Below are positions 46,103 through 46,354 of a DNA stretch of 64,000 nucleotides, one piece after another. This DNA is from an uncultured delta proteobacterium (GTDB taxonomy: Bacteria > Myxococcota_A > Polyangia > Polyangiales > Polyangiaceae), in contig CAWJCS010000004.1 in assembly GCA_963841435.1 (NCBI GenBank), positions 768,001-832,000 of the forward strand, given 5' to 3'. The position numbers and the translations under genes are program-made. Under the pieces are notes generated by a model, which ran no database searches, had not been told where the DNA came from, and saw only the letters and a program-made list of their open reading frames with translations. Each line of letters starts with the position of its first letter. The first letter of the stretch is position 1.

Positions 46103-46119
46103 GGAGCCATGACGGCTCC
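46103..46119 (-). terminator. Short hairpin directly after the nifK stop (possible terminator or processing site)
   Basis: GGAGCC-5 nt-GGCTCC; no U-tract. Confidence 0.35.
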
Positions 46120-46235
46120 TAGCGGGTGAGATCGAACGAGATGTCGGTCTCGCCCGCCGTGTCGGTTGCCCGATCGAGATCATCGAAGATGCGGTCGAGG
46201 ATGCGGACCAGCACCTGCAGTCCCCCCTGGTAGCC
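46119..46235 (-). pseudogene. nifK: C-terminal remnant (38 codons) of nitrogenase MoFe beta subunit
   Basis: Manual translation GYQGGLQVLVRILDRIFDDLDRATDTAGETDISFDLTR*, the typical NifK C-terminus, located just before nifE. Confidence 0.88.
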
Positions 46236-46354
46236 CCGAGATGCTTCGCCCGCTTCTTCGCCGTCTTCTCGGGGTAGGCTTCAAGGACCTCCTTGATCAG
46301 GTTCTCGTGGAATTCCTTGTCGTTCTGGTAATCGATCGTCTTGATGACGCTCAT
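46235..46354 (-). pseudogene. nifD: N-terminal remnant (40 codons) of nitrogenase MoFe alpha subunit
   Basis: GGAGG RBS then [40 protein letters not shown], directly after nifH. Confidence 0.92.

Follow-up and report, generated by a model that had tools for sequence, protein, structure and literature searches.

The window, by which the whole 64,000-nucleotide stretch of contig C4 analysed here is meant, carries a nif and dra gene cluster in its right-hand part in which only the two ends of the nifDK pair are left. The nifH gene (46395..47296, minus strand) is full length with two 1-bp frame changes (~47165 and ~46456); its main piece matched TIGR01287 with 362.7 bits, and in two pieces it gave full coverage of the NifH protein of G053, a metagenome-assembled genome (MAG) of the Rhodospirillales, at 91.5% identity. 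The nifE gene (44705..46000, minus strand, with a putative start at 46000) contains three frame changes (~45515, ~45155 and ~44862) and its C-terminal end is absent; its pieces matched TIGR01283, and four of them gave 0.97 coverage of G053 NifE at 87.4% identity. Divergent from nifH are draT and draG (47687..49414, plus strand), each in three frame pieces, which were recognized by PF07357 (DRAT) and TIGR02662 (DraG), respectively. The minus strand at 49787..54111 encodes nifA (at least three pieces), nifB (four pieces), a 4Fe-4S ferredoxin, nifZ and nifT. NifZ and NifT domains occur in a single stop-to-stop frame, which is followed by a dodecin gene (window 49475-50362), and this stretch sits between the nifB-adjacent ferredoxin gene and draG.

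Between nifH and nifE, a nifD remnant (46238..46354, minus strand) begins with the ATG at 46354, just downstream of an RBS-like GGAGGA box, and ends after 39 native codons with the residues AKHL. It abuts a nifK remnant (46119..46237, minus strand) consisting of the last 38 codons, which correspond to residues 483-520 of G053 NifK, and a stop codon at 46121-46119; the nifK-tail frame reads GYQGGLQVLVRILDRIFDDLDRATDTAGETDISFDLTR up to this stop. The NifD-head frame and the NifK-tail frame join at the GGGG run at 46237-46234, and the junction (46238/46237, feature 46234..46238, minus strand) is blunt, with an overlap of 0-1 nt, and out of frame. Codon 40 of the reading frame that starts at the ATG is a hybrid, with base 1 from nifD and the next two bases from nifK codon 482, so that, compared with G053, nifD codons 1-39 plus base 1 of codon 40 and nifK from base 2 of codon 482 onward are retained. 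The original prediction, made from the letters of the window, had described an out-of-frame join of nifD to nifK across this G run, with nifH and nifE on either side. The junction, the frames, the 38 NifK codons and the flanking genes (with two and three frame changes, respectively) were all recovered, but the 40 codons that it assigned to NifD include only 39 native ones.

A profile search aligned the NifK tail with TIGR01286 positions 479-516 (E 7.9e-8), and 37 of its 38 residues are identical to intact G053 NifK. At the nucleotide level, 104 of 117 positions agree with the intact G053 nifD gene, and the encoded NifD head shares 38 of its 40 residues with the product of that gene. Judged by these sequence comparisons, the matches of head and tail are well over chance, and Rhodoplanes reference proteins (L062) position the NifD head, the NifK tail, nifH and nifE in the window. 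The surroundings of the junction (236 bp) are clean, with each remnant in frame and no indel within ~200 nt.

The nearest intact locus was found in G053, which was reached through a gltA match (L177), and has the gene order nifH, nifD (491 aa), nifK (520 aa), nifE and nifN, all intact. Window positions 44705-46237 correspond to G053:C2:532694-534221 (89% identity) and positions 46237-50498 to G053:C2:537128-541291 (81% identity), and the two HSPs abut at 46237. Exactly 2,906 bp of G053 (C2:534222-537127) are absent from the window; in G053 numbering, they encode NifD from residue 40/41 to residue 491 as well as NifK residues 1-482, and they include the ~104-nt spacer between the two genes. The plus strand of the window reads GGTAGCCCC up to the junction and continues directly with GAGATGCTT; in G053, GGTAGCCCC is followed by AGGTCGGG on the nifK side and GAGATGCTT is preceded by CTGACGGC on the nifD side. 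Contigs of four public sequencing runs (X1, X4, X6 and X9) were also compared with window 44000-48500. For a relative in X4 (~92-96% identical), a nifE-side contig matches the window to 46237 and has 184 nt of its own beyond this point, and a nifH-side contig matches down to 46238 and has a further 117 nt; the loose ends translate to RHHHHRFPT, from the body of NifK, and to KHL followed by TVATEGASDC, from the body of NifD. Thus, nifDK is intact in both close relatives examined, X4 and G053, and both enter the nifD and nifK bodies exactly at 46238/46237, which agrees with the estimate in the original prediction of close to 3 kb of missing nifDK and defines the breakpoints that it had proposed to locate by alignment to the nearest intact nifHDK.

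The cause assigned to the gap by the original prediction, a microhomology-mediated deletion at the G run, was not borne out. The nifD side of the breakpoint reads CTC-GCC in G053 and CTC-ACC in X4, so that the overlap is 1 nt if G053 is taken as the reference and 0 nt if X4 is; both relatives stand in for the true ancestor, for which an overlap of up to 4 nt is conceivable. The microhomology reading is unsupported because the overlap is 0-1 nt and the G run is nifK's own TGG GGC.

By gene order and protein identity, the nif locus of the window is an orthologue of an ordinary Rhodospirillales nifHDKEN cluster with divergent draTG. It shares the order draG-draT, nifH-nifD-nifK-nifE with G053 and also with L011 (8517-10388), a locus in an alphaproteobacterial MAG, and the nif genes of the window are closest to alphaproteobacterial loci. 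Unlike G053, the window is without the 2,906 bp of nifD and nifK, without the end of nifE and without anything past nifE, including nifN.

The gap differs from the 1-bp indels scattered over the neighboring genes, as the original prediction had noted. None of the five nifH/nifE indels is present in the contigs of the relatives. Frameshift-specific decay of the nif genes was considered and rejected: the 1-bp indels represent noise and not nif decay, because the whole block of DNA to which the nif genes belong is equally noisy and host essential genes in the window (9126-11134) are also broken, with at least two frame changes in rpsB and at least one in tsf. The two frame breaks in nifH, and the condition of the nif and dra genes kept in this block in general, agree with the block-wide noise. 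A crude frame tracker, which found one of the five known nifH/nifE shifts and is used here for relative density only, placed 12 of the 15 frameshift candidates of contig C4 in its last 97 kb (0.12/kb, versus 0.004/kb over the remainder of C4). The remaining 7.69 Mb of the assembly yielded 80 candidates, so that those in this tail are ~12-33 times denser than elsewhere. Genes throughout the tail are broken; a 1,555-aa open reading frame of G053 appears in seven pieces (91% identity) and a 1,182-aa one in nine. Elsewhere in the assembly, rpoB is in four frame pieces and rpoC in three, amounting to five frame changes in ~8.3 kb, versus five in 2.4 kb for nifH and nifE, and ~33 kb of polysaccharide genes (11-44.6 kb of the window) contain no break. 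Indel noise in the host part appears to be concentrated in conserved genes. Clusters of frameshift candidates were also seen at G000:C6:1,179,192-1,182,912 (six within 4 kb) and over rpoB/rpoC at G000:C3:1,311,557-1,316,123 (four), G000 being the assembly to which the window belongs. Among 73 NifH loci fetched, L011 is the nearest to the window and has a frameshift in its own nifK, indicating that consensus indel noise is not peculiar to this record.

The nif block ends abruptly at 44704/44705, where myxobacterial host DNA on the left meets a Rhodospirillales block on the right, probably through misassembly. This position falls within nifE, at a distance of 1.53 kb from the nifD/nifK junction. 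NifE leaves its relatives after HAYAGYEGM, contigs of X4 and X9 depart from the window at 44705/44706, and past this point X4 has a normal NifE C-terminus. In the window, pseudaminic-acid-type and glycosyltransferase genes take the place of nifN beyond nifE. The cluster had been described in the original prediction as otherwise retained, which is not supported: nifE homology ends at 44705 with host myxobacterial DNA beyond, and retention of the cluster is not assessable because the join cuts it.

Contig C4 consists of ~813 kb of host DNA followed by a tail of ~97 kb (C4:812,705-909,933) that extends from window position 44,705 to the contig end. On the host side, the window at 1-10,000 is syntenic with genomes of the same genus at 70-87% identity, in a search of 40 relatives that include the unpublished G045, on which no result depends, and a 773-aa piece of RpoB from the assembly, at 82-86% identity to records of Sorangium and Polyangiaceae, marks the host as Polyangiaceae-like. 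On the other side, window 54,000-64,000 gave only isolated matches to same-genus genomes (~64-88%) and no synteny. The tail is collinear with the G053 chromosome: C4:812,705-909,863 matches G053:C2:532,694-630,118 in 26 HSPs of 68-89% identity, and left of C4 812,705 no match to G053 was found. The part of the block that lies in the window (44705..64000) carries nifE, nifH, draT, draG, the dodecin gene, nifZ/nifT, the ferredoxin gene, nifB and nifA, and the block also includes TRAP transporter genes, a Rrf2-family gene, sulfate-ABC-like genes, gltA and PF19269, a tRNA-synthetase anticodon-binding domain. The gltA piece in the tail is 95% identical to that of the Rhodospirillales MAG L177 and is a second copy, since the host keeps its own gltA at 659 kb of C4.

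Composition changes at the same place. The GC content drops from ~0.70 to 0.60-0.68 right of ~46 kb, and tetranucleotide frequencies place every one of the eight 10-kb windows at C4 820-900 kb in the most deviant 3%, where they make up eight of the 24 outliers in 775 windows. A host-versus-tail composition score, for which nine left-hand and two right-hand 1-kb windows lay outside the training data, was negative in nine of nine 1-kb windows at 36-45 kb and positive from 45 kb; genome-wide, it was positive only in the tail and in two isolated windows. Two other regions stand out by GC content, G000:C2:850,001-860,000 (0.535) and G000:C6:1,690,001-1,700,000 (0.525), compared with 0.687 for the genome. 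Synteny immediately left of the join is slight, with only ~190 nt of window 36,000-44,704 shared with two of 12 relatives, and the assignment of this stretch to the host accordingly draws on its composition and on the low noise there. The pseudaminic-acid-type and glycosyltransferase genes left of the join (38,100-41,750) have paralogues at G000:C5:889,943-894,371 (72-90% nucleotide identity) and are nearly absent from the 12 same-genus genomes searched. The 30 nt left of 44705 are unlike the continuation of G053, which gives no indication of a false overlap as the cause of the join.

Two lineages on one contig, distinguished by homology and synteny, and a step in both composition and consensus quality at the join are what is expected of an interspecies chimera, and contig C4 is in all probability chimeric. 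Long-read metagenome assemblies are known to contain chimeric and wrongly joined contigs, frameshift errors and stretches that no reads support, according to the portion of PMC13087279 drawn upon here, and interspecies chimeric contigs have been reported in many near-complete MAGs, according to the part consulted of a bioRxiv preprint (10.64898/2026.10.15.759294). The window resembles such contigs in switching taxon, composition and synteny abruptly, with a foreign part that is frameshift-rich and reaches the contig end. Unlike the kinds of error named in that portion of PMC13087279, the tail also has collinear gaps on the kilobase scale. The best explanation is a mis-join of a low-coverage fragment, because two phyla are involved, a housekeeping-rich collinear chromosome continues to the contig end, and consensus quality changes 12-33-fold. 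That coverage of the tail is low is inferred from the consensus noise.

Alternatively, the join could be real, if horizontal transfer had brought a Rhodospirillales chromosome segment of at least 97 kb into a myxobacterium. The nif genes would then form a decaying relic in which nifDK was deleted, nifE truncated, and nifN and what lay beyond it lost in the new host. The sequence is contiguous in the assembly, and a relic in a non-diazotrophic host would account for several lesions together as well as for nifN, nifX and a true nifU being found nowhere in an assembly that is 95% complete. However, the block reaches the contig end, is collinear with a chromosome, housekeeping genes included, and brings a second gltA that is 95% Rhodospirillales-like alongside the host's own. 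The 12-33-fold difference in consensus quality to the adjoining host DNA would not be expected for one molecule at one coverage, and no mobile-element signature was noticed at 44705, where the search was not systematic. Horizontal transfer of this kind is considered highly improbable.

The chimeric nature of the contig also affects what can be said about nitrogen fixation. The statement in the original prediction that the locus cannot make MoFe protein is unsupported, with the nif block and the rest of the assembly belonging to different organisms. Its proposed search of the parent genome for a second nifDK did return none, but this result is uninformative, because the assembly is not the parent genome of the nif block. 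In this assembly, nifD and nifK profiles matched only nifE and the 38-codon tail, profile searches did not find nifN or nifX, and nifV and nifU gave only sub-threshold paralogues (310 bits for nifV, where the cut-off is 462.9, and 135.8 bits for nifU, where it is 273.3). Since the nif block is foreign to the assembly, the failure to find further nifD/nifK, nifN, nifX or nifU is silent on the organism that owns the nif genes.

The nifDK gap is one of several in the tail. A scan against G053 identified four places that abut in the window or the rest of the tail but skip 190-2,907 bp of G053, and it revealed no gap in the opposite direction; genes are cut by three of these gaps. In addition to nifDK, these are two gaps in a sulfate-transporter-like operon (61511..61784, plus strand), ~15 kb from the nifD/nifK junction in the same tail. 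At 61511, 1,558 bp are gone, comprising cysT-like codons 179-314, the whole of a cysW-like gene and cysA-like codons 1-82, and cysT-like codon 178 is joined in frame to cysA-like codon 83. At 61777-61784, ~190 bp are gone within the cysA-like gene, in a stretch with three frame changes in ~300 nt. The fourth gap (1,372 bp, close to the end of the contig) eliminates one complete open reading frame of G053 and looks like an ordinary difference in gene content. It would be unlikely for a free-living genome to have undergone several recent deletions that cut genes in a 97-kb stretch of otherwise well-conserved genes, and the gaps would fit a poorly supported consensus, although a count of four gaps to none is small and would fit a gene-losing strain too.

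The junction is not good evidence of a natural loss of nifDK, because it lies at the inner edge of a noisy foreign tail in a chimeric contig. As a biological feature of this genome, the gap is most likely not real. On balance, we lean slightly toward the gap being an artefact or an unsupported, minority variant. According to this reading, the tail would be a low-coverage fragment of another organism that was mis-joined by the assembler, and its abrupt collinear gaps, including that in nifDK, would stem from the same poor support and would not be fixed deletions; the gap itself may have entered when a lone read, aberrant or from a minority, served as the backbone, or through an error in polishing or joining. 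The apparent presence of nifH without nifDK and the absence of nifN and nifX would then be consequences of the join and of the poorly supported tail. Against an artefact, a collinear internal excision in the same orientation looks like a real deletion, and we are not aware of a standard step in assembly that would take out 2.9 kb between points lacking homology if no read at all carried the gap. The clean surroundings of the junction and the ordinary appearance of the fourth gap likewise speak against an artefact.

The principal alternative is that the deletion of 2.9 kb is real and took place recently in a wild strain or sub-population of the Rhodospirillales, by illegitimate recombination without microhomology between nifD codon 40 and nifK codon 482. 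Such a strain would keep nifH, nifE, nifB, nifA and draTG and would make no MoFe protein. The excision is clean and collinear with conserved flanks, the adjoining nif and dra genes carry only the block-wide 1-bp noise, and at least one read must presumably have carried the junction for it to enter a long-read consensus. Structural variants often break assembly graphs, and a contig break and mis-join close to the locus would follow from strain heterogeneity there. However, a junction pattern of 27 specified bases, tolerant of G-run length, had no matches in genome_contigs and none in metagenome_contigs, and the relatives examined have the genes intact. None of the public sequencing runs searched contained the window stretch (best share of words 0.13), and in runs X1, X4, X6 and X9 no piece bridged 46237/46238 among the 32 listed, with 845 further pieces beyond these; the outcome for the runs speaks neither for nor against a deletion. 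The inter-phylum join lies close by and two more gene-cutting gaps occur in an unrelated operon of the same block, and so many recent deletions in 97 kb would not usually be expected in a free-living genome. No decay is visible in the remnants, and the deletion, if real, would have to be very recent. Taken together, a real deletion is a serious possibility that falls somewhat short of an even chance.

It is also conceivable that the sequence derives from an engineered, markerless ΔnifDK laboratory strain. Such nif mutants are built as head-to-tail fusions of nifD to nifK, which is the arrangement at the junction, and a homopolymer error in the G run could mask an in-frame design. However, the record behaves like a metagenome bin, with two organisms on one contig, and the relatives from the genus that were searched are, with few exceptions, fragmented assemblies, with contig numbers from tens to more than 1,000. 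Comparison of the window and G053 junction sequences revealed no restriction-site or scar sequence, and similar gaps occur in unrelated genes. An engineered origin is therefore hardly credible.

The value of these observations lies chiefly in data quality. A near-complete, six-contig myxobacterial bin has ~97 kb of DNA from a different phylum attached to the end of one contig, and its contamination estimate of 2.71% does not flag this foreign block. In gene surveys, nifH, nifA, nifB and draTG would be attributed to a myxobacterium. Dos Santos and colleagues reportedly proposed, in 2012, nifH, nifD, nifK, nifE, nifN and nifB as the minimal gene set for Mo-nitrogenase. In this record, nifH is present at full length in two frame pieces, nifD and nifK are reduced to 39 and 38 codons, nifB is in four pieces, nifE is cut at 44705, and nifN was not found in the assembly, the join having removed whatever came after nifE. 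A survey based on nifH would call the record a diazotroph even though nifD and nifK are not intact, as it would non-diazotrophs that carry pseudo-nifH. Unlike pseudo-nifH, the window gene is a group-I-type nifH that adjoins nifDK remnants and is no paralogue; TIGR01287 nifH is its best family and it is orthologous to the nifH of an intact locus, and on these grounds it is a genuine nifH. Caution about surveys that use nifH only has already been published, as stated in the sections of PMC8597730 and PMC3464626 drawn upon here. The false diazotroph call would, in the present case, have two sources, a misassembly by which nifH ended up in a myxobacterial bin and a gap of uncertain reality. If the gap is real, it would represent an ordinary recent loss of nitrogen fixation in another organism and no new kind of biology, a fresh non-fixing variant within a diazotroph population, before further decay and with the DraT/DraG switch kept, which would be worth noting for nifH-based surveys.

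Among 18 same-genus genomes searched, nifD was found in one, G002, in which nifHDK and nifE are located on L005 (G002:C344) and L008 (G002:C116), for which 4.8 and 5.2 kb were fetched. These nif genes may be binning contamination, because the contamination of that bin is ~8%.
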